A stretch of DNA of 20,125 nucleotides from Desulfohalobiaceae bacterium (GCA_021737615.1 JAIPDR010000053.1:1-20125); one strand, 5' to 3'. Counted from the first letter of the stretch, positions 1,802 through 19,558 are shown. The notes: generated by a model not told the origin, from the letters alone. Numbers and translations: made by a program.

Positions 1802-1846
1802 CCTTTAGGCACTTTAGTTCATTTATCAACTTGAGGCACTTCTTCT
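1802..1846. repeat. Arm of the AAGTGCCTAAAGT hairpin-element family overlapping the 3' end of the PAS kinase gene
   Basis: cctttaggcactttagttcatttatcaacttgaggcacttcttc aligns with the right arm of the element at 15917-15967. Positions 1827-1844 are the exact reverse complement of 6339-6356 (18 nt). The arm encodes EEVPQVDK plus the stop codon. Confidence 0.85.
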
Positions 1847-4800
1847 CTCCCGTCCAGCACCTCCCTCACTTTTCCGGCGATACCTTCCCGCTGAAAGGGT
1901 TTCATGAGTACGGCCCGGATCCCCTTTTCCTTGAGATTCTCCCTGGTAATCCGTTCGCTGAATCCAGTGCAGATGATCACGGGTAGATCCGGCCGGATGG
2001 CCAGCAACCGCAGGGTCAAGTCCTCCCCGGTCATCTGCGGCATGTCCATGTCGGTGATAACCAGATCAAAGGCTTCCGGGTCTGCGGCAAAGACCTCCAG
2101 GGCCTCGAGACTCCCGGTTCGGGCCTCGACCCGATAACCGAGGCCCTCGAGCATCCGCCTGCCGATTCGGACAATGGAGGGTTCGTCGTCCACCAGGAGA
2201 ATACGTTCGGTTCCGGCCTGGAGGGAGGCTTCCGGTTTGGATCGAGGGCCTTCTTCCGCCTCGAGTGCCGGCAGGTAAACCCGAAAGGTCGAGCCCCGGC
2301 CCGGCTCGCTATAGACCGAGATCATGCCTCCGTGCTCCTTGACAATGCCATAGGCCGTGGACAGGCCCAAACCGGTGCCCTTGTGTTTGTCCTTGGTGGT
2401 AAAGAAAGGTTCGAAGATCCGCTGCCTGACCTCCGGCGACATGCCGGGGCCGGTATCGCTGACGGTCAGACGAAGATATTCGCCCGGCTCCATATCGGCA
2501 TCCCGCTTTGTGAATCCTGCATCCAGGTCCGTGACCGAGAGTCCAATCTCAAGAACACCCCCGGTCTCGGCCATGGCCTGGGCCGCGTTGGTGCAGAGAT
2601 TCATCAAGACCTGATGCAGCTGGGAGGGATCACCGGAAACCAAGGGCAGATTCCCCTGAATTTCCCGGCGAATCTCAATGCCGGCCGACAGCGTGGCCTG
2701 GAGCATCTTCACGCTTTCTTTGACCAGGGCCTGGAGTTCCACTGGTTCTTTGTCTCCTTTTTGTTTTCGACTGAAAGCCAAGATCCGCTGCACCAGATCC
2801 GCAGCCCGGTTTCCGGCTTTGAGGATCTCATGCAGATCCCGATGAACCGGGCTGCCCGGTTTGGCCTCCGCAGCGGCCAGCTGGGCCGTGCCAATGATTG
2901 CGGTCAAAATATTGTTGAAATCATGAGCGATACCCCCGGCCAGGGTGCCGATGGCCTCCATTTTCTGGGCCTGCAGAAGTTTGACTTCCAGGTCCTGTTT
3001 CTCCTGTTCAGCCATTTTCCAGTCCGTGATATCACGGGCCAGGCCCTGTACACCCAGGACCTTGCCCAGAGCGTCTTTGCGCAGGGCGGCATTGGTGGAG
3101 ACCCAGACCAGGGAGCCGTCCCGGGCGGGCATTTCCGCCTGAAAATCCTTGAGTTCCCCGGTTTCTTGCAGCGCCGCCAGAAGATCCTCCCGCTGCTCAG
3201 GAATGCGGTAAAATCGAGACATTTGCTCGCCCAGAACCTCTTCCGGGGCATAGCCCAGGATATCCCTAACCGACGGAGAAATAACCGTGATGCGGCCCTT
3301 AGCGTCCGTACGGTAAAAAATGTCCGTGATACTGTAAAAAATATCCTGATATTCCTGCCGGCTTTGCCGCAGAGATCGTTCCATGTCTTTGCGCCGGCTG
3401 ATGTCCTGAACCATGACCTGCACGGCCGGCTGGCCCTCGTAGCTCAGGGCCGTGGCCATGACCTCGACGTCGATGGCCTGCCCGTCCAGGCGGACATAAC
3501 GGTCTTCCACCGGATAGAGACCGGTCTCCCCGGCCAGCATGCGCCGGATTCTGTCCCTTGCCGCGTCCCAATTGTCCGGGTGAATGATCTCCTTGATCGG
3601 CTTGCCCATAAGCTCTTCCGGGGAAGCGGCCCCGATGATCTCCGCCCCGGCCTGATTGCTGAAAACCACCCGTCCCCCGGCATGCACGCAGATCCCCACC
3701 GGCGAGACCTCGATCAGGTTGCGGTAGCGGGCCTCACTCTCCTGGAGCAATTGCTCGGCCTTTTTCAAGCTGCTGATATCGGTGTGGGTGCCGACCACCC
3801 GGACCGCCTTTCCCTGCTCATCATACGAAAAAACCTTGCCCCGGCCCAGGATCCACTTCCAGTGCCCGGATTTCGTCTCCAGCCTGAACTCTTTTTCAAA
3901 AGGCTCGGATTTCTGTGCAATGTGCTCAAGAATGCCTGCCTCGACACCTGCTCTGTCCTCCGGATGCAAAAGACCGGCCCAGGTCTCGTAGCTCTGGGGC
4001 AGCTCATAAGGCGTATAGCCGAGCATGGTGAAATAGCGAGGACTGAAATAGACCTCCCCGGTCCGGACATTCCAGTCCCAGAGGCCGTCATTACTGGCTT
4101 CCAGGGCAAAGGTGAGGCGCTCTTCACTTTTTTTCAGGGCCTCTTCCATGTCAATTTTTTCAGTGACATCCTCGGCCACCTTCACGAAATGAGTGATCGA
4201 GCCGTCTTCAGCAAACATGGGTGAGATGGAGGCCTGCTCCCAATAGAACTTATCATTTTTTTTCCGGTTAGAGAACATCCCCCGCCACTCCCGCCCTGAG
4301 AGCAGGGCCTCAAGCATTTCTTCAGCCTCTTTCTCCGATTGTTCACCCAATTCCATGGCCTTCCGGCCCAGAATCTCTGCGGCGGTATAGCCAGTTATTT
4401 GCTCAAACTTGGGATTCACGTACTCAATGTTGCCTTCACCATCGGTGATCATGACGATGTTCGGGCTTTGTTCGACGGCAGCGGACAATTTTCGAATTTC
4501 TCTCTCCGCCTCCTTGCGCCTGGCCAGCTCCGCCTCCAGGTCCTGCATCTTCTTTTCCAGCTTCTGTACCAAGCGCTGGCTGTAGAGTTTGTAGGTCTCT
4601 TCTTCTGCTCGCTGAGCCGGCTGACCCGGCTCAAGGCCTCGGGCCTCGGCTTCCTCCATCACCGCCTGGACTGCCTTGAGGAAATCGTTCGGCTGCATCG
4701 GCTTGCGCAGGAAGCGGTCCGCCCCCAGCTTAAGGGCAAAAGTCTCGTCCTTGTCGTCCACATACGTGGCCGTGTAAAAGATGAAAGGAATGTTTCGCAG

Positions 4801-5013
4801 GGCCTCGTTGCCCTTGCAGTGCTTGCAGAGCTGGAATCCGTCCATGACCGGCATGAGGATGTCGGCAATGATCAGGTCAAAGGGCTCGGCCTGGAGTTTG
4901 TCCAGGGCTTCCTGGCCGTTTGCAGCCGTGACGGTCTCATACCCCTTGGCCTGGAACATGGTCTGGAGCAGGTAGAGGTTTTCCAGCTTGTCGTCGACGA
5001 TGAGGGCCTTCAT
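1819..5013 (-). CDS. Hybrid sensor histidine kinase: REC - coiled coil - 4 PAS - HisKA - HATPase_c - REC
   Basis: 1064-aa ORF. ATG 5013 follows GGAGAG. The N-terminal receiver has VDD...DLIIADILMP. Four PAS-like blocks follow. The H-box is IAHDFNNILTAI and the HATPase G-boxes are DTGPGM and GTGLGLS. The C-terminal receiver has LLVDDE...DLVITDMDMP...LMKP. Confidence 0.92.
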   Translation of the reverse strand: MKALIVDDKLENLYLLQTMFQAKGYETVTAANGQEALDKLQAEPFDLIIADILMPVMDGFQLCKHCKGNEALRNIPFIFYTATYVDDKDETFALKLGADRFLRKPMQPNDFLKAVQAVMEEAEARGLEPGQPAQRAEEETYKLYSQRLVQKLEKKMQDLEAELARRKEAEREIRKLSAAVEQSPNIVMITDGEGNIEYVNPKFEQITGYTAAEILGRKAMELGEQSEKEAEEMLEALLSGREWRGMFSNRKKNDKFYWEQASISPMFAEDGSITHFVKVAEDVTEKIDMEEALKKSEERLTFALEASNDGLWDWNVRTGEVYFSPRYFTMLGYTPYELPQSYETWAGLLHPEDRAGVEAGILEHIAQKSEPFEKEFRLETKSGHWKWILGRGKVFSYDEQGKAVRVVGTHTDISSLKKAEQLLQESEARYRNLIEVSPVGICVHAGGRVVFSNQAGAEIIGAASPEELMGKPIKEIIHPDNWDAARDRIRRMLAGETGLYPVEDRYVRLDGQAIDVEVMATALSYEGQPAVQVMVQDISRRKDMERSLRQSRQEYQDIFYSITDIFYRTDAKGRITVISPSVRDILGYAPEEVLGEQMSRFYRIPEQREDLLAALQETGELKDFQAEMPARDGSLVWVSTNAALRKDALGKVLGVQGLARDITDWKMAEQEKQDLEVKLLQAQKMEAIGTLAGGIAHDFNNILTAIIGTAQLAAAEAKPGSPVHRDLHEILKAGNRAADLVQRILAFSRKQKGDKEPVELQALVKESVKMLQATLSAGIEIRREIQGNLPLVSGDPSQLHQVLMNLCTNAAQAMAETGGVLEIGLSVTDLDAGFTKRDADMEPGEYLRLTVSDTGPGMSPEVRQRIFEPFFTTKDKHKGTGLGLSTAYGIVKEHGGMISVYSEPGRGSTFRVYLPALEAEEGPRSKPEASLQAGTERILLVDDEPSIVRIGRRMLEGLGYRVEARTGSLEALEVFAADPEAFDLVITDMDMPQMTGEDLTLRLLAIRPDLPVIICTGFSERITRENLKEKGIRAVLMKPFQREGIAGKVREVLDGREEVPQVDK
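4500..5013. repeat. Copy 1 of a ~514-bp direct duplication (REC + coiled-coil module)
   Basis: Collinear with 5825-6338 at a constant offset of 1325 nt. By eye there are only scattered substitutions, and the stretch 4800-4990 versus 6125-6315 is almost identical. Confidence 0.9.
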
Positions 5014-5027
5014 GCGCTCTCCATATC

Positions 5028-5212
5028 ACATTTTGGATTTTGGATTGCGGACCTTCGGATTTTGGCCTATGCCCCGGCTTCCGTCTAGTAGAGCCTACAG
5101 CTCGAAGAGAAGGATTGCGGATAGATTTCAAGAAGAAAATTTTGGTTTTTTCTCATAATAACCAGCTCTTATTCTTCATCTTAACGATCCAAAATCCGCA
5201 ATCCAAAATCCT
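5028..5212. repeat. Spacer bracketed by inverted heptamer arrays, with a conserved core
   Basis: Arrays are 5028-5065 (acattttggattttggattgcggaccttcggattttgg) and 5186-5212 (gatccaaaatccgcaatccaaaatcc). Positions 5035-5051 are the exact reverse complement of 5195-5211 (17 bp). The right array overlaps the HD-GYP stop (5211-5213) and the left array ends 14 nt from the kinase ATG. Core 5127-5187 is homologous to 9601-9662 and, inverted, to 14058-14118. Confidence 0.9.
5155..5184 (-). promoter_or_regulatory. Sigma-70-like hexamer pair inside the conserved core (speculative)
   Basis: The minus strand reads TTAAGA-18 nt-TATTAT. The equivalent positions in the other copies read TTAAGA-18-TATCTG (9600s, minus strand) and GGAAGA-18-CTATAT (14060s, plus strand). 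There is no experimental support and the 18-nt spacer is suboptimal. Confidence 0.2.
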
Positions 5213-6338
5213 AAAAGCTGCCGGCATCGAAAGAAAAGCCTTTGTCCAGATACAGCCTGAGGCAGGCATCCACTGCTCCTGGATCGTACCTGATGCCCCG
5301 GCCCTGCTCGATCTCCTCCAATGCCTGATCCAAATCCAAGGCCGTACGGTAGGGCCGATGAGAGGTCATGGCCTCGACCACGTCGGCCACGGCCATGATA
5401 CGGGCTTCCAACAAGATATCCTTTTCGGACAGGCCCTGGGGATAACCGGAGCCATCCAGTCGCTCGTGATGCTGGAACACGGTCCGGGCGATGGGCCAGG
5501 GGAAGTCGATGTCCTTCAGGATGTCATAACCCGTCTGGGAATGGTTTTGAATCAGGCTGTATTCCATATCTGACAAGCGGACTGATTTGGATAGGATTTC
5601 CGCAGGCACCGCGATCTTTCCAAGATCGTGGATCATGCCTGCCAGAGAGACTCCCTTTTTCTGTTGTTCAGGAAGGGCCAATTCCCCGGCAATGGCCCGG
5701 GCGAGCCTGGCGACGCGGCTCTGGTGCCCGGATGTATAAGGGTCACGCAATTCGACCATTCTGGCGGTGGCCTTGACTGTTCCCTCCAAGGCCTTCCACA
5801 GTTGGGCATGAGCTTTCTGTAGGTTCTCCTCCGCTTGCTTGCGGCCGGCCAGCTCCACTTCCAGATCCTGCATCTTCTGTTCCAGCTTCTGCACCAAGCG
5901 CTGGCTGTAGAGTTTGTAGGTCTCTTCTTCTGCTCGCTGGGCCGGCTGGCCCGGCTCAAGGCCTCGGGCCTCGGCTTCCTCCATCACCGCCTGGGCTGCC
6001 CCGAGAAAGCCGTTCGGCTGCATGGGCTTGCGCAGGAAGCGGTCCGCACCCAGCTTCAAAGCAAAGGCCTCGTCTTTTTCATCCACATACGTGGCCGTGT
6101 AAAAGATGAAAGGAATGTTTCGCAGGGCCTCGTCGCCCTTGCAGTGCTTGCAGAGCTGAAATCCGTCCATGACCGGCATCAGGATGTCGGCAATGATCAG
6201 GTCAAAGGGCTCGGCCTGGAGTTTGTCCAGGGCTTCCTGGCCGTTTGCAGCCGTGACGGTCTCATACCCCTTGGCCTGGAACATGGTCTGGAGCAGGTAG
6301 AGGTTTTCCGGCTTGTCGTCGACGAGGAGGATTTTCAT
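5211..6338 (-). CDS. Response regulator with HD-GYP domain (RpfG-like c-di-GMP phosphodiesterase)
   Basis: ORF 5211..6377. I place the start at ATG 6338 (MKILLVDDKPENLYLL) because it aligns with the MKALIVDDKLENLYLL start of the paralogous module and GAGG lies 8 nt upstream. The longer ORF starts at a GTG inside a repeat. The HD-GYP motifs HDLGK and HHERLDGSGYPQGL are intact. Confidence 0.9.
   Translation of the reverse strand: MKILLVDDKPENLYLLQTMFQAKGYETVTAANGQEALDKLQAEPFDLIIADILMPVMDGFQLCKHCKGDEALRNIPFIFYTATYVDEKDEAFALKLGADRFLRKPMQPNGFLGAAQAVMEEAEARGLEPGQPAQRAEEETYKLYSQRLVQKLEQKMQDLEVELAGRKQAEENLQKAHAQLWKALEGTVKATARMVELRDPYTSGHQSRVARLARAIAGELALPEQQKKGVSLAGMIHDLGKIAVPAEILSKSVRLSDMEYSLIQNHSQTGYDILKDIDFPWPIARTVFQHHERLDGSGYPQGLSEKDILLEARIMAVADVVEAMTSHRPYRTALDLDQALEEIEQGRGIRYDPGAVDACLRLYLDKGFSFDAGSF
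5825..6338. repeat. Copy 2 of the REC + coiled-coil module duplication
   Basis: See 4500-5013. The protein segments are near-identical from LVDDK through QRLVQKLE.KMQDLE.ELA.RK.AE. Confidence 0.9.
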
Positions 6339-6356
6339 AAGAAGTGCCTCAAGTTG
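6339..6356. repeat. Solo arm of the AAGTGCCTAAAGT family immediately upstream of the HD-GYP start
   Basis: aagaagtgcctcaagttg is the exact reverse complement of 1827-1844. Confidence 0.85.
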
Positions 6357-6368
6357 TTTTACATTGTG

Positions 6369-6695
6369 AATCTCCACATTTTGGATTTTGGATTGCGGAA
6401 TTCAGAGTCATGATTTTGAGACTATTTGCTTTTTCTCGCGGTTTTTATCGAAGATACGATTATTGCGATAATTTCATCGTTTTCTTTCATGAGAGCAGGT
6501 ACCGAGTTCGTTTCAAGAATTTTCATCTCCTCTATGATCTCAAGCCAAAACAATGTTTCATCGGCTTCTTCTTCCACTATGGCCAATTTTGAAATAAAAT
6601 CAGCTACAACACCATCCTCCAATCTTCATTCCCCAATCCCTCAGGGGCTTAGTCCAAAGTCCACTTCCCCAATCCAAAATCCGCAATCCAAAATC
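6369..6695. repeat. Inverted heptamer arrays bracketing the four-helix-bundle gene remnant
   Basis: Arrays are 6369-6399 (aatctccacattttggattttggattgcgga) and 6669-6695 (ccaatccaaaatccgcaatccaaaatc). Positions 6384-6399 are the exact reverse complement of 6680-6695 (16 bp). The right array abuts the receiver stop codon (6694-6696). Confidence 0.9.
6422..6622 (-). pseudogene. C-terminal half of a four-helix-bundle protein (23S rRNA intervening-sequence protein family), N-terminal half missing
   Basis: The 66-aa ORF has a TTG as first codon and no ATG. The sequence ...DFISKLAIVEEEADETLFWLEIIEEMKIL...ENDEIIAIIVSSIKTARKSK matches helices 3-4 of the ~120-aa family (..EA.ET.YWLELL..). Upstream sequence in all frames is heptamer repeat, not helices 1-2. 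Confidence 0.6.
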
Positions 6696-7158
6696 ACAGA
6701 TATCGCCTGACCTCGTCCACAAACGATCCGGTATCAATCGGTTTTTCAATATAGCCGTCACAGCCGGCCGCAAAGGTCTTTTCCCGATCGCCCTTCATGG
6801 CATAGGCGGTCATGGCCACTACAGGCATACGCTTCATTTTGGATTTTGGATCTTGGATTTTGGATTCTTCTTTATTCTGTAATCCGGATTCCAAATTCCG
6901 AATTCGCCTCGTGGCCTCATACCCGTCCAGTTTGGGCAACTGCATATCCATCAGAACCAAATCGGGCTTCTTTTGAATGGCCTTTTGCACGCCCTCCTCT
7001 CCATCCCTGGCCTCCAAGACTTCAAAGCCGGCAATTTCCAGTAGAAATCTGGCCAGATACAAGTTTTTCTCCTCATCCTCAACGATCAAGACCTTCTTAT
7101 TCTGCGGCGAAAAATCAGGATTATAGCCCTTGGTGTTCATCATGCTCCATCCTTTCAT
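6694..7158 (-). CDS. Single-domain CheY-like response regulator with an expanded loop
   Basis: 154-aa ORF with ATG at 7158. Alternative starts at 7143/7140 have a better SD (AAGGATGGAG). REC motifs are VLIVEDEE, DLVLMDMQLP, VVAMTAYAMKGD and YIEKP. The loop between RRIRNLE and PVVAMTA is about twice its usual length (see 6835-6905). Confidence 0.88.
   Translation of the reverse strand: MKGWSMMNTKGYNPDFSPQNKKVLIVEDEEKNLYLARFLLEIAGFEVLEARDGEEGVQKAIQKKPDLVLMDMQLPKLDGYEATRRIRNLESGLQNKEESKIQDPKSKMKRMPVVAMTAYAMKGDREKTFAAGCDGYIEKPIDTGSFVDEVRRYL
6835..6905. repeat. Miniature heptamer element inside the receiver CDS, in frame
   Basis: The minus strand reads cggaatttggaatccggatt-acagaataaagaag-aatccaaaatccaagatccaaaatccaaaatg. 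That is an array, an AGAATAA(A)GA core and an inverse array. It translates as NLESGLQNKEESKIQDPKSKMK. Confidence 0.85.
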
Positions 7159-7222: not shown

Positions 7223-7341
7223 GTAAGTGCCTAAAATTAAGCGTTCTGTGTTTCATCGTTTCCCTATTGTCAATGTCTTCCTCTTCCAATTCTGCCAACT
7301 TTAGACACTTTCGTTCACTTACAAACTTGAGTCACTTCGTC
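7223..7341. repeat. ~119-bp hairpin (MITE-like) element, AAGTGCCTAAAGT family
   Basis: The left arm is gtaagtgcctaaaattaagcg (7223-7243). The right arm is ccaactttagacactttcgttcacttacaaacttgagtcacttcgtc (7295-7341). The right arm contains the last six codons (RSDSSL) and the stop codon (7319-7321) of the upstream kinase. Confidence 0.8.
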
Positions 7342-9454
7342 TCCCTCCTTCTCCCAAAGCCTTTTTGATATCCCGCAACAGATCTTCCCGGCTGGATTGC
7401 TGCTTCTGGATGATATTCTCGATCTTGCTGTTGAGCCAGGCCACTTCTTCCTGGGTCAACTTTTTACCGGAAACAATAATAATCGGGATATGCTTGGTGG
7501 GTTCTTCCTGTTTCAACCTGCCGATGACCTCAAAGCCGTCCACCTCCGGCATCATCAAGTCCAGGATGATCAGATCCGGGGCCTGCTCCGAGACCCTGTC
7601 CAGCCCCTCCTGCCCGCCATAGGCCTTTCTGACCCTGTAGCCGTTGATCTCTTCCAGGTATCTGGACAAGAGCTCCACGGCCCGGGCATCATCGTCCACG
7701 ATCAGGATATCGAAGATAGGCCGCATTTTCTTGAGCCGATCCAGCTCCCGGGTCAACCGGTCCTTGTCGATCGGTTTGACCAGGTATTCCACGGCTCCGA
7801 GGGAGAGGCCCAGCTCCCGGTTGTCCAGGATGGAGATGCAGATAACCGGAATGTTTTCGGTTTCAGGATCGTTTTTGAGTTCTTCCAGGATGTCCCAGCC
7901 ATCCCGGCCGGGCATGACGATATCCAGGGTCACGGCGAAGGGTTTGAATTTCCGGGCCAGCTGCAGGGCCTCCAGACCGTTGTAGGCCTGGATGACTTCA
8001 TAACCTTCGGCCTGGAGGTAGGTTGTAAGGATCTCCTGGGCCTCCAGCTCGTCGTCGATGGTCAGGATCAATTTCCTGGTCTGATCCAGGGTTTCAGGAG
8101 AGACAGCAGGCGGCCTGGCAGCCGGACCGGCCTCCTGGACGGGAATGTTGAAAAAAAAGCAGGAGCCCTGGCCATATTCGCTGTTCACCCCAATGGACCC
8201 GCCCATCATCTCCACCATTTTCTTGCAGATGGCCAGGCCCAGTCCTGTGCCCCCGGGTTTTTCCTTAAGCGGACCGTCGATCTGCTTGAATTCGTCAAAG
8301 ACCTCCTCCAGGTGCTCGGGCCGGATGCCCAGACCGGTGTCGGACACGCTGAAGCGGATCAGGGCCGGGCCGGCCGGTTCCACCCTCAGCTCTATCCGGC
8401 CGGAGCTGGTAAATTTTACGGCGTTGGACAGCATGTTGATCAAGACCTGCTTGATGCGGTTCTTGTCATTGTACAAGCCGGAGGGGACACCATCGGCTAC
8501 ATTCACAAAAAAATTTAAACCCTTATCCTGAACCAGGGGAGAGAACATGCCCTGGACCGTGTCAACAAGGCTTTGGACATCGAATTCAGCAGGCTGGATC
8601 TCGATCTTGCCGGCCTCGATCTTGGACAGGTCCAGGACGTCGTTGATCAGGCCCAAGAGGTGCTGGGCGCTGCCGTAGACCATGTTCAGCTGTTTTTTTT
8701 GTTCCGCATTGAGCTCGCCCGCCAATCCCTCGAGGATGATGCCGCTGAAGCCGATTATGGAGTTCAGGGGCGAGCGCAGTTCGTGGCTCATATTGGCCAT
8801 AAACTGGGACTTGAGCCGGCCGGCCTCTTCCAGGCGCTGGTTGGCCTTTTCCAGCTCCTGTTTCTTTTCCTTGAGTTCCGTGTTGACCCGGGTCAACTCT
8901 TCCTGACCGGCCCGCAGTTCATCCAGGGCCTGCAACAGGTCCTGGTTTTGCTGCTGGACTTCTGCAAACGCGGACCTGGGTCCCCCGGCTGCCAGCCCGG
9001 AGGTGAGGCGCTGGATATCTGCAGGGCCCCAAGGTTCCCGGCCCTCGGGAAGGGCCTTTCCCATGAGCACGCGGGTGCCCTGGCCCGGCCTGGAATCGAT
9101 CTCAAAATGGTCCATGAGCCGCCTGGCCCCGGCAAGGCCGATGCCCAGCCCGCTTTTGGAGGCATAGCCTTGCTTTAAGACGGCCTCCAGATCGGCAATC
9201 CCGGGGCCTTGGTCCTCGAAAGACATGCACAGCATCTGCGGCGAGGCCTCCAGGTCCAACTGGAAATCCAGCTTGCCGTCCCCGGCGTACTGGTAAACAT
9301 TGCGGGCCAGCTCGGACACAGCCGTGGTGATCCGGGTCTGATCCTGGGAGGTAAAGCCGATCAATCCGGCGATCTCCCTGGAGCGCTGCCTGGACAGAAT
9401 CACGTCGTCCTCGAAACGGATCTGAATGCTGAGGATCTTTGTTGGCATCTTCAT
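7319..9454 (-). CDS. Hybrid histidine kinase with N-terminal RsbT-like GHKL domain: RsbT-like - coiled coil - HisKA - HATPase_c - REC - REC
   Basis: ORF 7319..9562. Candidate ATG starts are 9454, 9448, or the repeat-encoded in-frame ATG 9493. The N-terminal domain reads QTRITTAVSELARNVYQYAGDGKL...DQGPGI...SGLGIGLAGARRLMDHFEIDSRPGQGTRV, which resembles RsbT as I recall it from B. subtilis. It is followed by MSHELRSPLNSI (H-box), the HATPase N/G boxes, and two receivers (LDIVMPGRDG and LDLMMPEVDG). Confidence 0.88.
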   Translation of the reverse strand: MKMPTKILSIQIRFEDDVILSRQRSREIAGLIGFTSQDQTRITTAVSELARNVYQYAGDGKLDFQLDLEASPQMLCMSFEDQGPGIADLEAVLKQGYASKSGLGIGLAGARRLMDHFEIDSRPGQGTRVLMGKALPEGREPWGPADIQRLTSGLAAGGPRSAFAEVQQQNQDLLQALDELRAGQEELTRVNTELKEKKQELEKANQRLEEAGRLKSQFMANMSHELRSPLNSIIGFSGIILEGLAGELNAEQKKQLNMVYGSAQHLLGLINDVLDLSKIEAGKIEIQPAEFDVQSLVDTVQGMFSPLVQDKGLNFFVNVADGVPSGLYNDKNRIKQVLINMLSNAVKFTSSGRIELRVEPAGPALIRFSVSDTGLGIRPEHLEEVFDEFKQIDGPLKEKPGGTGLGLAICKKMVEMMGGSIGVNSEYGQGSCFFFNIPVQEAGPAARPPAVSPETLDQTRKLILTIDDELEAQEILTTYLQAEGYEVIQAYNGLEALQLARKFKPFAVTLDIVMPGRDGWDILEELKNDPETENIPVICISILDNRELGLSLGAVEYLVKPIDKDRLTRELDRLKKMRPIFDILIVDDDARAVELLSRYLEEINGYRVRKAYGGQEGLDRVSEQAPDLIILDLMMPEVDGFEVIGRLKQEEPTKHIPIIIVSGKKLTQEEVAWLNSKIENIIQKQQSSREDLLRDIKKALGEGGRRSDSSL
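7361..8850. repeat. Copy 1 of a ~1.5-kb duplicated transmitter module (HisKA-HATPase-REC-REC)
   Basis: Collinear with 15983-17480 at an offset of 8622-8631 nt with a few small indels. Long identical nucleotide runs occur, for example ctcgatcttgccggcctcgatcttggacaggtccaggacgtc. The protein segments are roughly 85% identical by eye. Confidence 0.9.
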
Positions 9455-9691
9455 ATTGCGGATCTTCCGATTTTTGATTTTGGATCTCCACATTTTGGAT
9501 TTTGGATTGCGGAATGCTGATTGCGGATTTTCCGATTTTTCCCGCTTTATGTCGCTTCCCAACTTTAGTCACTTCTTCGCTCTGCAATATTCACTATAGG
9601 CTTTAAGAAAAAGTTTTTGGATTTATGCCAGATAACCAACTCTTATTCTTTGTCTTAACAATCGAAAATCCAAAATCCAAAATCTAAAATT
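9455..9691. repeat. Spacer bracketed by inverted heptamer arrays, with a conserved core
   Basis: Arrays are 9455-9541 and 9659-9691. Positions 9492-9508 (attttggattttggatt) are the exact reverse complement of 9667-9683 (17 bp). Core 9601-9662 is homologous to 5127-5187. The spacer also carries a solo AAGTG-family arm at 9558-9580 (cccaactttagtcacttcttcgc). Confidence 0.9.
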
Positions 9692-9700
9692 CTATAGTCA

Positions 9701-10750
9701 CTATTCAATCACCCGCCCCACCACCACGGTCAGATCATCGTCCCGTTGGTAGTCGCGGTACAGAACGCCGGCGATCAGCGCAGGGTGCCTGGTCACGAGT
9801 CCGGGGTAAGGGTCCAGACTCCAGCCTGTCTTCAAGCCATCGGAATGCATGACCAGCAAGGGAGGGGAGCCGCCTTCTCTCTCCGGCCAGGGAGTGACGT
9901 AGACCCGGCTGAGCTCCTGGCGGCGCCCCACAATTCCATACCGGGAGACCAGGTGCCGGTTCTGGCTTCCGGAGAGGAGGCAGGCGGAGATGTTTCCCAA
10001 CCCGACAAAACGGACTTCCCGCTTCTGCCTGTCCATTTCCGCAACTGCAGCGGCCGCTCCCCGGGTGCCCCGCAGCCCTGCCTGCATACGCTGCATCATG
10101 TCCTGCAGGTCCAGGCCCGGGTTGGCCTGAAAAATTCGTCTGAGCTCCAGAGAGGCCTCGGCCGCTCCAGGACCATGCCCCAGTCCGTCCGCCACCAAAA
10201 CGGCCCAGCCGTTGGGGCGAGGCTGGAGGGCCCAGTTGTCCCCGCAGACGCTCTGGCCCGGCTTGGGCAGGCAGATCCCGGCCACCTCGAACCCGGGGGC
10301 TGAAGGCTTGGCCAGACCGCCTTTCGGCCGGAGGCAGGCCATGAGCACGGTCCCCTGGTCCGGGAGGGAATGGATATCAAACTGGGAACTCAAACGGCGC
10401 ATGGCCCCGAGACCGGTTCCCGGGCTGCCTGTGCTGGAAAAGCCGTCCTGGAGACATTGTCCCACATTCTGCATCCCCGGTCCCTTGTCAATAGCCACGA
10501 TCCGCAGGCCGGACATTTGGCCCAGCTGGACCGTATCCAGGAGCAGCTCCCCGGACCGGGCGTGTTTGAGCAGGTTGGTCCCGGCCTCGGTGACCACGAT
10601 GGCTGTTTTGCCGGTTTGATCCTCACTGAAGCCCAGCTTGCGGGCCAGGTTCACGGCCTTCCGCCGCACTTCGGCGATCCGGCTTTGCTCGGTAACGGAA
10701 AAGGCCAGGCTGCAGCCCGGGCTTTCCTGAGGTATTGAATATGGTCTCAT
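9701..10750 (-). CDS. Fusion of GHKL Ser-kinase-like domain (HATPase_c_2, RsbW/RsbT-like) and PP2C/SpoIIE phosphatase (RsbX/RsbU role)
   Basis: ORF 9701..10804. I place the start at ATG 10750 (MRPYSIPQE), which forms an ATGA overlap with the rsbT stop (10747-10749). Kinase-like motifs are VTEAGTNLLKHA, DKGPGM and GSPGTGLGAMRR. PP2C motifs are VCGDNW, VADGLGHGPGAA, MHSDGL and DDDLTVVV. Confidence 0.85.
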   Translation of the reverse strand: MRPYSIPQESPGCSLAFSVTEQSRIAEVRRKAVNLARKLGFSEDQTGKTAIVVTEAGTNLLKHARSGELLLDTVQLGQMSGLRIVAIDKGPGMQNVGQCLQDGFSSTGSPGTGLGAMRRLSSQFDIHSLPDQGTVLMACLRPKGGLAKPSAPGFEVAGICLPKPGQSVCGDNWALQPRPNGWAVLVADGLGHGPGAAEASLELRRIFQANPGLDLQDMMQRMQAGLRGTRGAAAAVAEMDRQKREVRFVGLGNISACLLSGSQNRHLVSRYGIVGRRQELSRVYVTPWPEREGGSPPLLVMHSDGLKTGWSLDPYPGLVTRHPALIAGVLYRDYQRDDDLTVVVGRVIE

Positions 10751-11157
10751 TTCCACATGATCATGCATACCCGGGTCCCTTGTCCTGCTTGGGATTCTAT
10801 CCAAAATTCATCCACCAGCCTTTTGCTGCCGGGCAGGCCCAGACCCAGGCCCTTGTTCGTGCTGTACCCTTTTTGCATGGCCAGCTGCACATCCTTCAGA
10901 CCCGGCCCTGTATCCGTAAATATCAGGCGCAGACCGAAACGGACTGCATTGTCCACGGCCTCCAGGAGCGCCTTCCCCTCCCGGCCGTATCGAGCCGTAT
11001 TGCGGGCGATCTCACTGGCCGCCGTGACCAGCTTGGTCTGCAGGATCAACGAAAACCCGAACTCCTTTGCCCATTCGCGGACGACCCGCCTGACCCGGGC
11101 CACATCCTGATCAGTGCGGACCGGCAAGGTTTCATGCTTCCGTACGGTCAGGGACAC
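10747..11157 (-). CDS. rsbT: RsbT-like serine kinase / switch protein
   Basis: This lies in ORF 10747..11313. The likely start is GTG 11157 (GGAGAAGG just upstream), overlapping the rsbS 3' end by 26 nt. The ~136-aa sequence includes ...AASEIARNTARYG...DTGPGL...KGLGLGLPGSKRLVDEFWIESQAGQGTRV, a single GHKL domain of RsbT size. The start codon is uncertain. Confidence 0.8.
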   Translation of the reverse strand: MSLTVRKHETLPVRTDQDVARVRRVVREWAKEFGFSLILQTKLVTAASEIARNTARYGREGKALLEAVDNAVRFGLRLIFTDTGPGLKDVQLAMQKGYSTNKGLGLGLPGSKRLVDEFWIESQAGQGTRVCMIMWK

Positions 11158-11533
11158 GGCCCTTCTCCCGGGAAGACGATCCCAGCCTCTTGGCAAGCAG
11201 GGCCATGCCTTTGTCCACATCCAGGGCGGTCCGGATGCCTTTGATGGCCAGGCCCAGCTCGACAATGGTGATGGCCACCTCCGGCTGCATACCCACCAGG
11301 ACCGTTTCCGCATCCAGAAGGCCGGCCGTGGCCGCCATGTCTCCCAGGGTGCGGCCCATGAAGGAATCGATCATCTGCAGGGCTGAGATGTCGATCAATA
11401 CCCCCCTGGCCCCGGTTTTTTGAATCTGCTCGGCCAGGTCATCCCGCAGGGCCAGGGCCAAGCGGTCGTGCAAGTCCACTTGAATGATCACCAAAAGAAA
11501 ATTCCCCCACTTGAGGATCGGAATCCGTTCCAT
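11132..11533 (-). CDS. rsbS: RsbS-like single-STAS stressosome scaffold protein
   Basis: This lies in ORF 11132..11626. The start is ATG 11533 (MERIPILKWGNFLLVIIQ), since upstream codons are heptamer repeat. It is a STAS fold with DISALQMIDSFMGRTL, where the Ser sits at the expected phospho-acceptor position. Confidence 0.85.
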   Translation of the reverse strand: MERIPILKWGNFLLVIIQVDLHDRLALALRDDLAEQIQKTGARGVLIDISALQMIDSFMGRTLGDMAATAGLLDAETVLVGMQPEVAITIVELGLAIKGIRTALDVDKGMALLAKRLGSSSREKGRVPDRTEA

Positions 11534-11579
11534 GCTAGCGCCTTTCAGAAGAGGTTTTGATTGACTATTGATTATTTCA

Positions 11580-11650
11580 GCAATCGACAATCCAACATGT
11601 GAAGATCCAAAATCTCCAATCCGCAATCCAAAATCCGCAATCCAAAATCC
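11580..11650. repeat. Unpaired 71-bp heptamer array filling most of the rsbR-rsbS spacer
   Basis: gcaatcgacaatccaacatgtgaagatccaaaatctccaatccgcaatccaaaatccgcaatccaaaatcc starts directly after the rsbR stop codon (11651-11653). I found no complementary array before the rsbS start. Confidence 0.9.
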
Positions 11651-12520
11651 CTAGAATCTGCCCGGCTCCCCCTTGACCACATAACCGCTGCGTTCCAAGG
11701 CCAGGGCAAGCGCATCCGCCAGGGTGGCCTTGGTGGGAATTCCCCCCAGCTCCAGGCCCATGTCCACCATGGACTGGGCGATCATCGGCCGGATCCCGCT
11801 GATGATGCACTCGGCGCCCATGAGACCGGCCGCGGATACGGTCTTGATCAGATGCTGGGCCACCAGGGTGTCCACGGTGGGCACGCCGGTGATATCCATA
11901 ATGGCGATGGTGGATTTGGTTTCCACAATCATCTGCAAAAGGTTTTCCATGACCGTCTGGGTGCGGGCGCTGTCCAGGGTCCCGATCAGGGGGACCGCCA
12001 GGACCCCGTGCCAGAGCTGGACCACAGGCGTGGACAGCTCCATGATCTCCTCCTGCTGGCGCCGGATGACCTGTTCCCGGTGCTGAATAGAAGCTTCGGT
12101 GGTATACAGGCCCAGCTTGTCCAGCAGCCGGGTCGCGGTCCAGATTTCCTGCACCAGTTCCTCTGGATTCTCGGCCAGAAGGCTCTGGAGGAGGTACATC
12201 AGGGGCTGTTTAAAGGAAAAGATACAGGTGGCCACCTCCGAGGGGGTAAAGCCTTTTTCCCCCCGGGTGCGGGAGATCCTGGACAGCATGTCCCTGACTT
12301 CTTTCCAGGCTTCAGCGCTTGTATCAACGACTCCGCCCGCCTGCAGGGCCGAGCGGAAAAGACTGATAAATTCAGCAGCTTCTTCCCGCAGTGCGGTTTC
12401 ATCAATCAAATCCGGCCGCAAGACGCCGGAACTCAATTGTTCCCGGATCCAGTCCTTCAACAGCTCCTGTTCATACTTTTCAAGTATCTCCGGCAGGCGC
12501 GTTGTCTCTTGATCATTCAT
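11651..12520 (-). CDS. rsbR: RsbR-like stressosome sensor (N-terminal helical sensory domain + C-terminal STAS)
   Basis: 289-aa ORF. ATG 12520 has AGGAGG 7 nt upstream. The C-terminal STAS reads STPVVQLWHGVLAVPLIGTLDSARTQ...IMDITGVPTVDTLVAQHL, with Thr at the RsbR phospho-site position. The N-terminal ~150 aa resemble RsbR-type sensory domains (ILEKYEQELLKDWIREQL). Confidence 0.88.
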   Translation of the reverse strand: MNDQETTRLPEILEKYEQELLKDWIREQLSSGVLRPDLIDETALREEAAEFISLFRSALQAGGVVDTSAEAWKEVRDMLSRISRTRGEKGFTPSEVATCIFSFKQPLMYLLQSLLAENPEELVQEIWTATRLLDKLGLYTTEASIQHREQVIRRQQEEIMELSTPVVQLWHGVLAVPLIGTLDSARTQTVMENLLQMIVETKSTIAIMDITGVPTVDTLVAQHLIKTVSAAGLMGAECIISGIRPMIAQSMVDMGLELGGIPTKATLADALALALERSGYVVKGEPGRF

Positions 12521-12845: not shown

Positions 12846-12880
12846 CCTATAGTTCACTTATCGACTTGAGGCGCTTCTTC
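12846..12880. repeat. Arm of the AAGTGCCTAAAGT family overlapping the 3' end of the SBP/4-Cys sensor gene
   Basis: Positions 12854-12880 (tcacttatcgacttgaggcgcttcttc) differ at only 3 of 27 positions from 1819-1845. The arm encodes EEAPQVDK plus the stop codon. Confidence 0.85.
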
Positions 12881-14020
12881 AAATTCAGAGTAGAGCAGGG
12901 CCTCGCAATCCGGGCAGATGCCGTGGGAAAATGTAGCTTCTGAGTGTTTCTTGATGAAGAATTCGATCTGGTTCCAGTAGCCCTGGTCGTCCCGGATCTT
13001 TTTGCAGTTGGCGCAGATTGGGATGAGCCCTTTCAAGGTCTTGACTTGGACCAGGGCTTCCTGGAGCCGGTTCCGCTCATTGAGAAGCGCAGTCTCAGCC
13101 GCAGTTTTCCGGGCGATTTCCTCCTCCAGGGTCGTATTACGTTCCTTCAATTCTCTGGTTTTGGATCTGACCTGCTGTTTCAAGACCAGGCTGAAGAGAG
13201 CAAACAGACAGCCCAGGCCGACTGCCGCGGCCAATCCGAAAAGCAAAGCCCTGGGCACCTCCCGTTCCACCCGCATGTCGAACCAGTGCTCCAGGGTCTG
13301 GTTGTAGAAGGAATTCCGGTCCTGCTTCAGGACGGAAAGCTGTTGATCAATAGCGGCCGCCAGGTCCTGGTTATGCCCTTTGGGAAAGGCGAATCTGAGT
13401 TCCACCGGGGCCAGGACGATGGGCGTCCGCCTGACCTCGTATTTGTCCTCCTCGGCCAGGCCGTAGAGCCTGCTGATGATCCCGGCCTCCGCCGCTCCCC
13501 GGTCCAGGGCTTGAAAGACTTCTTTGTAACCGCTGCAGAGCACATACTCGCAGGCAATGTTGAACTGCTTGAAGCGTTCAAAGGAGATACCCCCTTGCAT
13601 GACCGCGACTCTTTTGCCCTGAAGCTGCTCGACGTTTTCAATGTCCAATCCTGCGCGGCTGTAAATCCTAGCCCAGTTGGAGAGCACGGTCTCCCGGTTG
13701 AAGTCATACATTTCGGCCCGGTCCCGGCTATAGGCCACATCCACCATGATATCCAGCTTGCCGGCCCGCAGCCGGTCCAGGCACTGCTGCCAGGTCCCGG
13801 GCACATAGTCCAGGTCCCAGCCTTCCTGCCTCGCGATATCCCCCAGAAGATCCACCCAGATTCCGGCGGGCCTGCCGGCCTCATCCAGGTAGACCTTGGG
13901 CTTGTTCTGATAGATGCCCACCCGGACCGTCTCGGCAGCAGACCCTGAAGCCGGGAGCCAGAACAGGAGCAACAGGGCGATGAGCAGCCGTATGAAATTT
14001 TGGATTTTGGATCTCCACAT
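12854..14020 (-). CDS. Membrane sensor: signal peptide - periplasmic SBP_bac_3 (Venus-flytrap) domain - TM - coiled coil - short 4-Cys C-terminal domain
   Basis: ORF 12854..14101 has a TTG as first codon. The likely start is ATG 14020 (MWRSKIQNFIRLLIALLLLFWLPASGSAA, signal-peptide-like). The SBP domain begins VRVGIYQNKPKVYLDEAG...DIMVDVAYSRDRAEMYDF. The TM segment is ALLFGLAAAVGLGCLFALFSLVL. The C-terminus is ICANCKKIRDDQGYWNQIEFFIKKHSEATFSHGICPDCEALLY. Confidence 0.85.
   Translation of the reverse strand: MWRSKIQNFIRLLIALLLLFWLPASGSAAETVRVGIYQNKPKVYLDEAGRPAGIWVDLLGDIARQEGWDLDYVPGTWQQCLDRLRAGKLDIMVDVAYSRDRAEMYDFNRETVLSNWARIYSRAGLDIENVEQLQGKRVAVMQGGISFERFKQFNIACEYVLCSGYKEVFQALDRGAAEAGIISRLYGLAEEDKYEVRRTPIVLAPVELRFAFPKGHNQDLAAAIDQQLSVLKQDRNSFYNQTLEHWFDMRVEREVPRALLFGLAAAVGLGCLFALFSLVLKQQVRSKTRELKERNTTLEEEIARKTAAETALLNERNRLQEALVQVKTLKGLIPICANCKKIRDDQGYWNQIEFFIKKHSEATFSHGICPDCEALLYSEFEEAPQVDK
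13090..13965. repeat. Copy 1 of a ~0.88-kb duplicated sensor module (SBP domain + TM + start of coiled coil)
   Basis: Collinear with 17542-18417 at an offset of 4452 nt. Identical runs of 40-60 nt occur, for example gccaggccgtagagcctgctgatgatcccggcctccgccgctcccc. The protein segments are roughly 85-90% identical by eye. Confidence 0.9.
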
Positions 14021-14247
14021 TTTGGATTTTGGATCTCCACATTTTGGATTTTGGATTAGGAAGACACAGAATAAGAACTGGTCTATATGGAATAAATCCA
14101 ATACCTTTTTCCTAAAGCATCTATCCCTCAGGGCCGGCCTCCAGCTCCGCTACGGGCCGGAGAGTAAAGTATACGCCCTGGAGAAAAGCCAAAATCGACC
14201 CTCTTTCTTTTTCCGCAATCCAAAATCCGCATTCCAAAATCCAAAAT
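13996..14247. repeat. Spacer bracketed by inverted heptamer arrays, with the conserved core in opposite orientation
   Basis: The left array (13996-14057) contains the 22-bp unit attttggattttggatctccac in 2.8 tandem copies (13997-14018, 14019-14040, 14041-14057). The right array is 14212-14247. Positions 14041-14055 are the exact reverse complement of 14233-14247 (15 bp). Core 14058-14118 is homologous to the reverse complement of 9601-9662. Confidence 0.9.
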
Positions 14248-14250
14248 TCT

Positions 14251-15783
14251 TCAAACGCTTTCCCACTCAAACCCCACGATATTCCGTTTCTCACTGGAAA
14301 ACTCCACCCCGATCAAATAGACCTCCTGCCCGGCGAATTTTTCCGCGTACCCCCTGGCCTTGATCTGTTCCAGGGCCCCGGCTTGATCCGTGAGCTCCAC
14401 CACCTTGAACTCGATCAGATAGATCCGGTCCTCAAAACGCAGGGTCAGGTCCATCCTGCCCTTGTTCGTCGGCTCTTCAGGATGGACGTCCAGCCCAAGG
14501 GCTGCAAAATAACAGTAGACAATGGAGGCGTAGTAGCCTTCATACCCGGCCAATTGGTTCTTGCGATACCAGTCATGGGGGATGGAGGCGAAAAAGGCCT
14601 GAAACAGCTCACGGAGCTTATCCAGGTCATTGACTGAGAGGGCATCCAGCAGATCGGACTGATTTCTGGTCTTGGCCAGGCGGGCCTGGGATAGTCCGTT
14701 CAAAATGGAGTTGGTCAGACTGGCCTTGACCTCCATGTTGGGGTAACCAAGGCGATACCGGCTAAAGGCCCCGGTCTGGGAAAAGCCCCTGATAGTCAAG
14801 TAGCCGGTCTGGAAAAGAAGGGCCTCCGCAACAATTGAATCGATATCAAAACTGCCCACGATTTCCTCTCCCACGGTCAGGTCTTCCACTTCCGGGATGC
14901 TGTACCGGCCCTCCTGCAGCAGTTTGACCAGAAAACCCGGGGTTCCGGTTTCAAACCAATAATTCCGAAATTCCTTAGAATCCAAATACAGCAGAATATC
15001 AAAAGGGTTATAGACCTCGTCTCCCAGCCAGTTGTACCCATTGTACCACTGTTGGACCTGATCCTTATCCACCCCGTCCAAACGATCCACAAAGACCGTC
15101 TCCAATTCCTGCTGGGTATATCCACAAATCGCTGAAAAGCGCTTATCCAGGGTGATGTCCTTGAGGTTGTTCAAACCGCTGAACAAGGAAACCTTGCTGA
15201 ATTTGGAGACCCCGGTGATGAATACGAATTCTAGATAGGGATCGGCATCCTTGATCACTGAGTAGTAGTTCTTGAGCTCCTCTCTGATTTCCACAGCTGT
15301 TGCCGGTTTTTCAATATTGTCCAGGATGGGCTTGTCATATTCGTCCACCAGGACCACCACTTTTTGGCCGAATTGCCTGCACAAGGTGTGGATCAGTTCG
15401 GCGAAGCGGCTTCTCAAATCATCATAGCTGAAAGAAATTTTGTATTCTTTCGCATGCTCGGATAATATATAGGTAAAAGATTGCTGAAGCTCCTCAATAG
15501 TTCTCAGCACTCCGGAGCCAAAGCTGATATGGACCACCGGATTCGTCCGGTCCCAATCCCAGTGATCAAAAAGATACTGTCCTTGAAACAAGTCCTTTTT
15601 GCCTTGATAGGCGGCCTTGATGGTGCTCAGGAACAAACTCTTGCCGAAGCGCCTAGGCCGGGAGAGGAAGTAATAATCCCCGGCCTGGGCCAGCTCGCTG
15701 ATAAACCGTGTTTTATCGACATAGTAACAGTTGCTTTCAATCAGCTTTTCAAAGGTCTGAATGCCGATGGGCAGCTTTTTCAT
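14251..15783 (-). CDS. AAA-ATPase-like protein with C-terminal PD-(D/E)XK nuclease domain (AAA-ATPase_like + PDDEXK_9 architecture)
   Basis: 510-aa ORF. ATG 15783 has AGGAG 9 nt upstream. The N-terminus MKKLPIGIQTFEKLIESNCYYVDKTRFI...FLSRPRRFGKSL is the family hallmark. The C-terminus GRMDLTLRFEDRIYLIEFKV carries the D...ExK nuclease motif. Confidence 0.88.
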   Translation of the reverse strand: MKKLPIGIQTFEKLIESNCYYVDKTRFISELAQAGDYYFLSRPRRFGKSLFLSTIKAAYQGKKDLFQGQYLFDHWDWDRTNPVVHISFGSGVLRTIEELQQSFTYILSEHAKEYKISFSYDDLRSRFAELIHTLCRQFGQKVVVLVDEYDKPILDNIEKPATAVEIREELKNYYSVIKDADPYLEFVFITGVSKFSKVSLFSGLNNLKDITLDKRFSAICGYTQQELETVFVDRLDGVDKDQVQQWYNGYNWLGDEVYNPFDILLYLDSKEFRNYWFETGTPGFLVKLLQEGRYSIPEVEDLTVGEEIVGSFDIDSIVAEALLFQTGYLTIRGFSQTGAFSRYRLGYPNMEVKASLTNSILNGLSQARLAKTRNQSDLLDALSVNDLDKLRELFQAFFASIPHDWYRKNQLAGYEGYYASIVYCYFAALGLDVHPEEPTNKGRMDLTLRFEDRIYLIEFKVVELTDQAGALEQIKARGYAEKFAGQEVYLIGVEFSSEKRNIVGFEWESV

Positions 15784-15847: not shown

Positions 15848-15967
15848 GGAAGTGCCTAAAGTCGGGGAACACCTAAAGTATTCGGAATTATAAGAGCGGT
15901 CGCTGCAGTCTCCGTTCCGTCAACTTTAGTCGCTTTAGTTCACTTCTCAACTTTAGCTCACTTCTTC
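15848..15967. repeat. ~120-bp hairpin (MITE-like) element, AAGTGCCTAAAGT family
   Basis: The left arm is ggaagtgcctaaagtcggggaacacctaaagtattcgg (15848-15885). The right arm is ccgtcaactttagtcgctttagttcacttctcaactttagctcacttcttc (15917-15967). The terminal ~15 nt are imperfect inverted repeats. The right arm encodes EEVS plus the stop codon (15953-15955) of the upstream kinase. Confidence 0.85.
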
Positions 15968-18460: not shown

Positions 18461-18475
18461 GTACAAGCTCTTCAC

Positions 18476-19412: not shown

Positions 19413-19558
19413 CTCCAATCCAAAATCCGCAATCCCTCCGGGGCATAGGCCCCTACGGGCCGGAGGCCAAAATCCAATATTCAATTCCTCCTCCCCATTC
19501 CCCATTCCCCATACCCCATTCCGCATTCCAAAATCCAAAATGTGAAGATCCAAAATCA
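19413..19558. repeat. Composite heptamer arrays with variant units downstream of the GGDEF gene
   Basis: 19413-19439 reads ctccaatccaaaatccgcaatccctcc. 19494-19558 reads cccattccccattccccataccccattccgcattccaaaatccaaaatgtgaagatccaaaatcac, about 9 units grading from CCCCATT to CCAAAAT. The second array overlaps the GGDEF stop codon (19556-19558). Confidence 0.9.

Follow-up and report, generated by a model that had tools for sequence, protein, structure and literature searches.

A stressosome-type operon with a triplicated RsbT domain and a probable histidine kinase output

How do stressosomes relay their signals if they lack RsbU and sigma-B? This question is raised by a five-gene module in a Desulfohalobiaceae bacterium (GCA_021737615.1). 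The module lies at positions 7319-12520 of a 20,125-nt contig (JAIPDR010000053.1, or C70), with all of its genes on the minus strand: rsbR, rsbS, rsbT, a fusion of a GHKL domain to a PP2C phosphatase, and a hybrid histidine kinase. We analyzed the entire contig, hereafter the window, which comes from a metagenome-assembled genome (3.84 Mb; 89.9% complete); gene neighbors past the contig end lie outside the data. An earlier note, made from the sequence alone, had described the module as a stressosome without sigma-B, with three successive RsbT-like GHKL domains and a two-component output. This core reading holds, and searching the window's proteins with Pfam profiles bore out the proposed domain layout for all five genes, including HisKA, HATPase_c, and two Response_reg domains in the kinase. 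We are fairly confident that this is a complete stressosome-type operon, that it belongs to a widespread class with a triplicated RsbT, and that the RsbT-type heads couple the scaffold to the kinase and the phosphatase. The central coupling step is one that we infer.

First, the products of 11132-12520 are RsbR and RsbS, as had been claimed. RsbR (11651-12520) has an N-terminal non-heme globin-type sensor (RsbRD_N, E = 2.8e-26) and a C-terminal STAS domain (E = 1.5e-13). In searches against sequences from the Protein Data Bank (PDB), it aligned over its full length to RsbR from Listeria (E of about 4e-28), and its STAS domain matched that of RsbR from Vibrio vulnificus (E = 2e-32). Its phospho-acceptor threonines, T181 (11978-11980) and T218 (11867-11869), are kept in 73 of 73 and 73 of 74 RsbR proteins from related cassettes. 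RsbS (11132-11533) is a single STAS domain (E = 4.4e-9), and its best match of solved structure is RsbS from Bacillus subtilis (6JHK, E = 8.6e-31), followed by Listeria RsbS (E = 8.7e-28), with DSF paired with DSF. The phospho-acceptor, Ser57 (11363-11365), lies within a MIDSF motif and is conserved in all 74 cassette sequences. The motifs that the earlier note quoted (DITGVPTVDT, DISALQMIDS, QTRITTAVSELARNVYQYAG, and TKLVTAASEIARNTARYG) are all present.

The next gene, rsbT (10747-11157), encodes a free-standing GHKL domain (HATPase_c_2, E = 3.1e-10) and begins with GTG. This in-frame codon, at 11157, is preceded by a purine-rich GGGAGAAGGG run, and the stop codon of rsbS is at 11132, so that the two genes overlap by 26 nt; rsbT and the fusion gene overlap by ATGA at 10750-10747. 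Both overlaps had been reported previously, together with the suggestion of translational coupling, and both are real in the sequence. The gene calls of four related loci have the same kinds of overlap (17-26 nt between rsbS and rsbT and 1-4 nt between rsbT and the fusion), so the GTG start is credible, and the translational coupling is shared among these loci.

The fusion protein (9701-10750; 349 residues) joins a GHKL domain (HATPase_c_2 at residues 22-137, E = 2.9e-12; about 10340-10687) to a phosphatase (SpoIIE/PP2C, E = 2.2e-9; about 9704-10291). NCBI's annotation describes it only as an "ATP-binding SpoIIE family protein phosphatase." When we compared a profile of the fusion family to the PDB, the strongest matches were MtX, the stressosome phosphatase of Moorella (3ZT9, E = 1.3e-25), and RsbX of B. 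subtilis (3W40, E = 1.3e-22), and SpoIIE was much weaker (E of about 1e-11). The AlphaFold2 model of the fusion, which has an average predicted local distance difference test score (pLDDT) of 86 and a predicted template modeling score (pTM) of 0.88, gave similar results with Foldseek: the top matches were MtX (template modeling [TM] score of 0.82) and RsbX (0.77), with SpoIIAB matching the N-terminal half (about 0.75). The catalytic motifs of the phosphatase (GD, DGLGHG, GN, SDG, and DD) are invariant in the fusion family, as are the N-box and G1/G2 motifs of the GHKL domain. Judging from these sequences, the phosphatase half is a short PP2C of the RsbX/MtX subgroup, which has the GN signature, with its predicted metal ligands intact. 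In all of the features compared, the scaffold, the switch kinase, and the reset phosphatase are those of a stressosome module.

The fifth gene encodes the hybrid histidine kinase. Its open reading frame extends from 9562 to 7319 and includes HATPase_c_2 (residues 58-168 of this frame, E = 6.4e-15), HisKA, HATPase_c, and two receiver domains. However, the protein most likely starts at the ATG at 9454 or 9448 instead of at 9562, because homologs start there and the roughly 110 nt upstream are an array of heptamer repeats. Counting from the ATG at 9448, the kinase (7319-9454) consists of an RsbT-type head (residues 1-132; 9053-9448), helices, DHp and CA domains, and two receivers, REC1 and REC2. 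The phosphorylated histidine, H222 (8783-8785), and the acceptor aspartates of REC1 (D509) and REC2 (D630) are invariant in 24 orthologs.

The kinase has no transmembrane segment, PAS domain, or other sensor domain, which leaves the RsbT-type head as the only possible input. In the AlphaFold2 model, the head is a confident block (pLDDT of about 80-95 outside of the ATP-lid region), and it is followed by a short helix and then by one continuous 80-residue helix (160-239) that contains H222 and enters the DHp domain. The N-terminus had been claimed to be an RsbT-like domain, and both Pfam, which assigns it to the GHKL family, and this model agree; no unrelated fold was indicated. Because there is no other sensor, and because the head feeds the helix that bears H222 much as sensor domains drive histidine kinases, the head is, as modeled, the input domain of the kinase. 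The same layout is seen in RsbU, which is driven by RsbU_N with RsbT bound to it (PMC12143880).

To survey the fusion, we considered one genome per species, and at least 548 species-representative genomes contain a confirmed relative. In a separate search, relatives of the fusion made up more than 5342 clusters at 90% identity, all with the same two Pfam domains. We tallied the gene content of 87 loci (the best 80 from this survey, six metagenomic contexts, and the window itself), using phmmer and the window's proteins to assign genes. RsbR, RsbS, RsbT, the fusion, and the RsbT-headed kinase are all present in 72 of the 87, and most of the incomplete loci are at the ends of contigs or have their genes divided among contigs. 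Of four loci without rsbR, rsbS, and rsbT, three are from genomes that encode RsbR and RsbS on another contig. A sixth gene, with a REC-HK-REC layout (a histidine kinase between two receivers), follows the cassette in 46 of the 87 loci.

The gene order is kept across more than ten phyla. Carriers include the cyanobacteria Microcoleus, Nostoc, Calothrix, and Tychonema; Janthinobacterium and Massilia from the Oxalobacteraceae; Methylophilus; and members of the Gemmatimonadota, Chloroflexota, Planctomycetota, Rokubacteria, Acidobacteriota, Myxococcota, Bacteroidota (Kapaibacterium), and Armatimonadota. Searching with just the kinase's head gave 141 clusters (at 50% identity) with E ≤ 1e-30 and 2,699 with E ≤ 1e-10. 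The top matches were mostly the N-termini of proteins of 400-750 residues, but free proteins of about 134 residues, which the Joint Genome Institute (JGI) named RsbT, also matched (about 52% identity). We checked the contigs of two of these (P0202 and P0172), and both are within such cassettes. Thus, the arrangement is a conserved and very widespread cassette and is not peculiar to the window.

Within its own lineage, the cassette is patchy. The fusion gene was absent from all 40 of the relatives that we searched, from the same genus, family, or order, and the best relatives of the window's fusion elsewhere are only about 52% identical, which suggests horizontal acquisition; the cassette was probably acquired by transfer. 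As a separate observation, the G+C content is 0.56-0.63 across 8001-12000; most of the remaining contig has lower values (0.47-0.60).

Are the three GHKL domains really three kinds of RsbT? We will refer to the free-standing domains as class T, to the phosphatase-fused domains as class X, and to the heads of the kinases as class K. We built maximum likelihood trees of 89-99 GHKL domains from 30 cassettes. We tried to root these with the genome's own RsbW-like protein, but its branch was 9.4 substitutions per site long and attached inside class K, so we rejected this root and read the trees as unrooted. Both trees have a branch that separates class X from all other domains and another that does so for class K (99-100% support). 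Class T is set apart in this way in the second tree (97% support) and falls between K and X in the first. Overall, T is intermediate between the other two classes, with stems of about 1.6 substitutions per site leading to K and about 2.4 leading to X. That the classes group across phyla, and not by organism, suggests that the triplication is older than much of the spread of the cassette. Within the window, the domains of classes T and K are 41% identical, and X is 35% identical to either of them. The claim of three successive RsbT-like domains therefore stands: Pfam finds HATPase_c_2 in RsbT, in the fusion, and in the kinase, and each of the three classes forms a well-supported group.

All three classes seem to retain a complete active site. 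The N-box Glu/Asn, the Asp-x-Gly-x-Gly of G1, and the glycines of G2 are kept in 80 of 80 domains from class T, 74-76 of 76 from class K, and 82-84 of 84 from class X. Class X differs in two respects that the other classes do not share: the N-box arginine is gone, and Thr or Ser stands in place of the first glycine of G2. These changes, along with the long stems of K and X, might indicate that the GHKL domains of the fusions have lost their activity and act only in dimerization or folding, with no link to stressosome signaling. We consider this extremely unlikely, since the residues that bind metal and ATP hardly vary in either of the fused classes, both the fusions and the order of the genes persist across more than ten phyla, and the phosphatase fusion is predicted (by the pTM given above) to be a single, confidently packed unit of two domains.

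The earlier note had also proposed that the head of the kinase is closer to canonical RsbT than the free-standing protein is. Neither single-sequence searches nor profile searches found any RsbT chain in the PDB sequence set; the RsbT profile matched SpoIIAB (E = 1.4e-8). Instead, as proxies for canonical RsbT, we used the RsbT proteins of proteobacterial modules with RsbU_N outputs, which we identified by scanning 401 genomes for PF08673. In the trees, these proxies fall in the unresolved center between T and K. On average, class T scored higher against them than class K did (224 versus 183). The window's own domains are about equally close to the four proxies from clear R-S-T modules: 41-46% identity for T and 40-50% for K. 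The window's RsbT fits the consensus of its class (QTKivTAASELARN), and its terminal branch is 0.73 long, versus a median of 0.4. Thus, the proposal was not supported: the proxies favor class T, and the window's T and K domains are similarly close to them.

We looked for the sigma-B branch and did not find it. With Pfam, there is no RsbV, RsbW, or sigma factor in the window. No sigma factor in this genome of the SigB/F/G family exceeds the cutoff (the best match to TIGR02980 has 131 bits, and the cutoff is 234). RsbU_N (PF08673) was not found in this 89.9%-complete genome or in four other genomes with the cassette, and a control search does find it in B. subtilis. It could still be that the true output is a sigma factor with its anti-sigma factor, encoded at another site, and that the kinase is a side branch. 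For example, another contig (C174; L001:1352-4338) encodes a divergent HAMP-PP2C protein along with an RsbW-like kinase and an RsbV-like STAS protein, the last two from genes with a 4-nt overlap, and has no adjacent sigma factor gene; moreover, some 10% of the genome is missing, and the neighbors of the window, which is an entire contig, are unseen. We judge this explanation to be very unlikely. Besides the lack of a SigB/F/G-family match and of RsbU_N, no relatives of this genome's RsbV- and RsbW-like proteins are within 8 kb of the cassette at the 86 other loci, and the kinase is syntenic with rsbR, rsbS, and rsbT in 72 of 87. An adjacent sigma-B/RsbVW cluster had been named as one of the findings that would overturn the core reading, and the lack of RsbV and RsbW relatives at those 86 loci speaks against it. 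One further single STAS protein is encoded on contig C201.

How might the scaffold control the kinase? In the mechanism that we propose, RsbR and RsbS would form the STAS scaffold and the free RsbT would be the switch kinase. The reset phosphatase, of RsbX type, bears its own paralog of RsbT (class X), and the output would be a cytoplasmic hybrid histidine kinase whose sole input domain is the third paralog (class K). If the heads dock on the scaffold, as discussed below, the kinase and the phosphatase would be held on the stressosome and would be freed or rebound according to the phosphorylation state of Ser57, Thr181, and Thr218. Upon release, the long helices of the kinase dimer would take up their active register, His222 would be phosphorylated, and the phosphoryl group would pass to D509 and D630 of the receivers. 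From there it could move to the neighboring CheY-like receiver and to the REC-HD-GYP enzyme, which would lower the level of cyclic di-GMP (c-di-GMP). The PP2C domain of the fusion would dephosphorylate the scaffold and reset the system.

For the contact itself, we tentatively prefer that the K and X heads dock on RsbR and RsbS and phosphorylate them, as RsbT does; we would put this at slightly short of an even chance. Our preference is based on the full kinase active site that all three heads keep and on the ligands of this kinase family: to our knowledge, STAS domains are the only ones. A more elaborate version is that the stressosome directly holds two further proteins, its output kinase and its reset phosphatase, each as an alternative "RsbT" subunit, so that the paralogs split the jobs of Bacillus RsbT (phosphorylating the scaffold, activating the effector, and feedback). 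We consider this version to be rather unlikely; under it, each paralog is possibly dedicated to one of the three invariant phospho-acceptors.

A different idea is that the K and X heads receive free RsbT, in place of the N-terminal domain of RsbU from Bacillus. Stress would free RsbT, which would form GHKL heterodimers with the heads and so turn on the kinase and, as feedback, the phosphatase. SpoIIAB-type kinases are dimers, which fits with this idea. Also, proteobacterial sister modules have the order R-S-T-(second free GHKL)-RsbX-(RsbU_N-kinase) or R-S-T-RsbX-(RsbU_N-kinase) (L110, L112, L114, and L116). The second free GHKL of these modules groups with class X (98% support), so the phosphatase-associated paralog also exists in an unfused form. 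Natural fusions of two RsbT-type GHKL domains in tandem exist as well (292-295 residues; L121:1917-2804 and L122:795-1673): in these two clusters, a T/K-like domain is fused to a second GHKL domain that scores as X- or T-like, and one of the genes is divergent from an RsbR-like gene. The tandem fusions may be a Rosetta stone for the pairing of paralogous heads. (Apparent PP2C-K and X-PP2C-K fusions, P0280 and P0337, were not used, as they may be artifacts of gene calling across ATGA overlaps.) On the other hand, a bare receptor would not need the N-box, G1, and G2 residues that are kept at 97-100% across phyla, no heterodimer of the RsbT-RsbT type has been described, and two clusters of tandem fusions are thin evidence. 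We consider reception of RsbT by the heads to be rather unlikely.

Several observations do weigh against our account, in which the heads dock on the scaffold and the kinase signals to its neighbors. First, every locus with RsbR and RsbS also keeps free RsbT, which is harder to square with a kinase able to dock on its own and is a point in favor of the heads as receptors. Second, RsbU_N, which is a receptor for RsbT, occupies the position of the K head in the kinases of the sister modules (Heinz 2022, PMC9237108; Baral 2025, PMC12143880), and this too favors reception of RsbT. Third, the linker of the window's kinase has a gap of exactly seven residues (GVVALYA) in its motif NRGVVALYAELDE, which is otherwise nearly invariant. 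The gap is at about 8815-8835, near residue 205, and the full motif, ELEDTNRGVVALYAELDEKA, is nearly invariant in 23 orthologs. This looks like the deletion of one heptad, which would keep the register of the coiled coil and remove an apparent functional site, so the window's kinase may behave atypically. Fourth, spacers of 160-350 nt stand between the kinase and the CheY-like and HD-GYP genes, which are linked to it by adjacency alone. Finally, the contig stops 7.3 kb past one end of the operon (on the rsbR side, the operon ends at 12520), and about 10% of the genome is missing.

The module can be compared to several systems that have been studied. It resembles the sigma-B stressosomes of Bacillus and Listeria in its RsbR, with a non-heme globin domain and STAS, in the serine of RsbS, in the R-S-T gene order, and in its RsbX-type PP2C. 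Unlike those systems, it lacks RsbU_N and SigB and has no RsbV or RsbW nearby; its RsbX-type phosphatase is joined to a paralog of RsbT, and the output is a histidine kinase with another paralog. V. vulnificus has an RsbR-S-T-X module with a two-component output, D1/D2, and no sigma-B (Heinz 2022, PMC9237108; Cutugno 2023, PMC10014275). As in the window, the phosphatase comes directly after rsbT and is followed by a sensor kinase, and there is a predicted c-di-GMP phosphodiesterase downstream (the window's REC-HD-GYP protein is analogous to D2). However, the RsbR of Vibrio has a heme globin-coupled sensor, its RsbX is described as a single-domain PP2C, and D1 is reported to contain PAS (PMC9237108); none of these is the case in the window. 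An RsbT-type head has not been reported for D1, and the authors of that study could not detect binding of RsbT to D1 (PMC9237108). As described in a paper that cites the original work, Moorella thermoacetica has MtR, MtS, MtT, and MtX with an RsbU_N-GGDEF output (Quin 2012, cited in PMC12143880). Moorella and the proteobacterial modules with RsbU_N-kinases share the window's scaffold, switch kinase, and RsbX-type phosphatase, and in all of them the output goes via an N-terminal module and a helical linker. The difference is that their output enzymes bear the RsbU_N receptor, whereas the window's kinase bears a paralog of RsbT (HATPase_c_2), and that their class X GHKL domain is a separate gene or is absent instead of being fused to the phosphatase.

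We also looked for precedents for the fusion protein. Like the fusion, Rv1364c from Mycobacterium tuberculosis has a PP2C domain and an anti-sigma-type GHKL kinase domain on one chain, but it has the reverse domain order and an added STAS domain. The fusion profile matched it weakly (3KE6, E = 0.007), and Foldseek's alignment (TM score of about 0.45) covered less than half of either chain, so its two-domain arrangement is not matched. The nearest studied protein, which we liken to the fusion by its description, is SypE of Vibrio fischeri, which has a central receiver domain. SypE combines an RsbW-like GHKL serine kinase and a PP2C phosphatase in one polypeptide and acts on a single STAS protein (PMC8256260). 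It is a precedent for a dual kinase/phosphatase on one STAS protein, although its target, SypA, is a single-domain protein and a stressosome scaffold has not been described for SypE. In the full-text papers that we could search, we did not find any description or experimental study of kinases or phosphatases with RsbT-type heads, although earlier reviews of stressosomes may mention them. This agrees with the claim that the three-kinase arrangement had not been characterized.

Some other features of the window touch on this module. The spacer between rsbR and rsbS is 117 nt, versus a median of 16 nt across about 79 related loci, and the spacer between the fusion and the kinase (9455-9700) is also expanded, to 252 nt, versus a median of 8 nt. 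Heptamer arrays (ATTTTGG/AATCCAA) fill spacers beside stop and start codons, at 5030-5065, 5187-5215, 6378-6394, 6671-6695, 9469-9508, 9660-9690, and 11605-11650; the arrays at 9469-9508 and 9660-9690 are both in the expanded spacer before the kinase. Because the spacers are so far above the medians, the arrays look like later insertions into an operon that was once tightly coupled.

Downstream of the kinase, and also on the minus strand, are genes for a CheY-like single receiver (6694-7158; Response_reg), which is a candidate phosphorelay partner, and for a REC and HD-GYP protein (5211-6377; Response_reg and HD_5, with HDLGK and HHERLDGSGYP motifs), which is a candidate output as a c-di-GMP phosphodiesterase. 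The earlier note had listed a CheY-like receiver, an HD-GYP enzyme, and a GGDEF enzyme around the module. The first two are indeed nearby, but the third is a GGDEF fragment (19556-20083) that lies 7 kb from the module, with unrelated genes in between. Another heptamer array (6836-6905) is in frame inside the CheY-like gene, where it encodes ...KIQDPKSKMKR...; the receiver's Pfam match is in two stretches. Between the CheY-like and HD-GYP genes is a 51-codon remnant (6425-6577, minus strand) that is weakly similar to the C-terminal end of PF05635 (the 23S rRNA intervening-sequence protein), with E = 0.013, which is below the cutoff.

Farther along the minus strand (1819-5013) is a hybrid kinase with the Pfam layout REC-PAS(x4)-HisKA-HATPase-REC. 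This resembles the REC-HK-REC layout of the conserved sixth gene, but orthology was not supported: the sixth genes score 143 bits against it, versus 193-195 bits against the window's other hybrid kinases. At the window, the sixth gene is replaced by the CheY-like gene, the REC-HD-GYP gene, and this PAS-rich hybrid kinase. On the other side of the module, the proteins encoded at 12854-14101 and 15953-18475 both start with a periplasmic binding domain (SBP_bac_3), and only one of them continues into a full hybrid kinase. Between these two genes is an AAA-ATPase_like/PDDEXK_9 gene (14251-15783).

Overall, with a paralog of RsbT on both its output kinase and its reset phosphatase, the cassette offers a concrete and testable answer to how stressosomes without RsbU and sigma-B relay their signals. 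Genetics and biochemistry should be feasible, as the carriers include culturable strains of Nostoc, Microcoleus, Calothrix, Janthinobacterium, Massilia, and Methylophilus. If our account is correct, then one family of regulatory domains has been reused as a free messenger, as an adaptor for a phosphatase, and as the input module of a kinase. If, in addition, the stressosome holds its kinase and phosphatase as RsbT-like subunits, then a megadalton scaffold would gate a two-component phosphorelay by sequestration, and signaling by stressosomes in the many phyla without RsbU and sigma-B would be accounted for.

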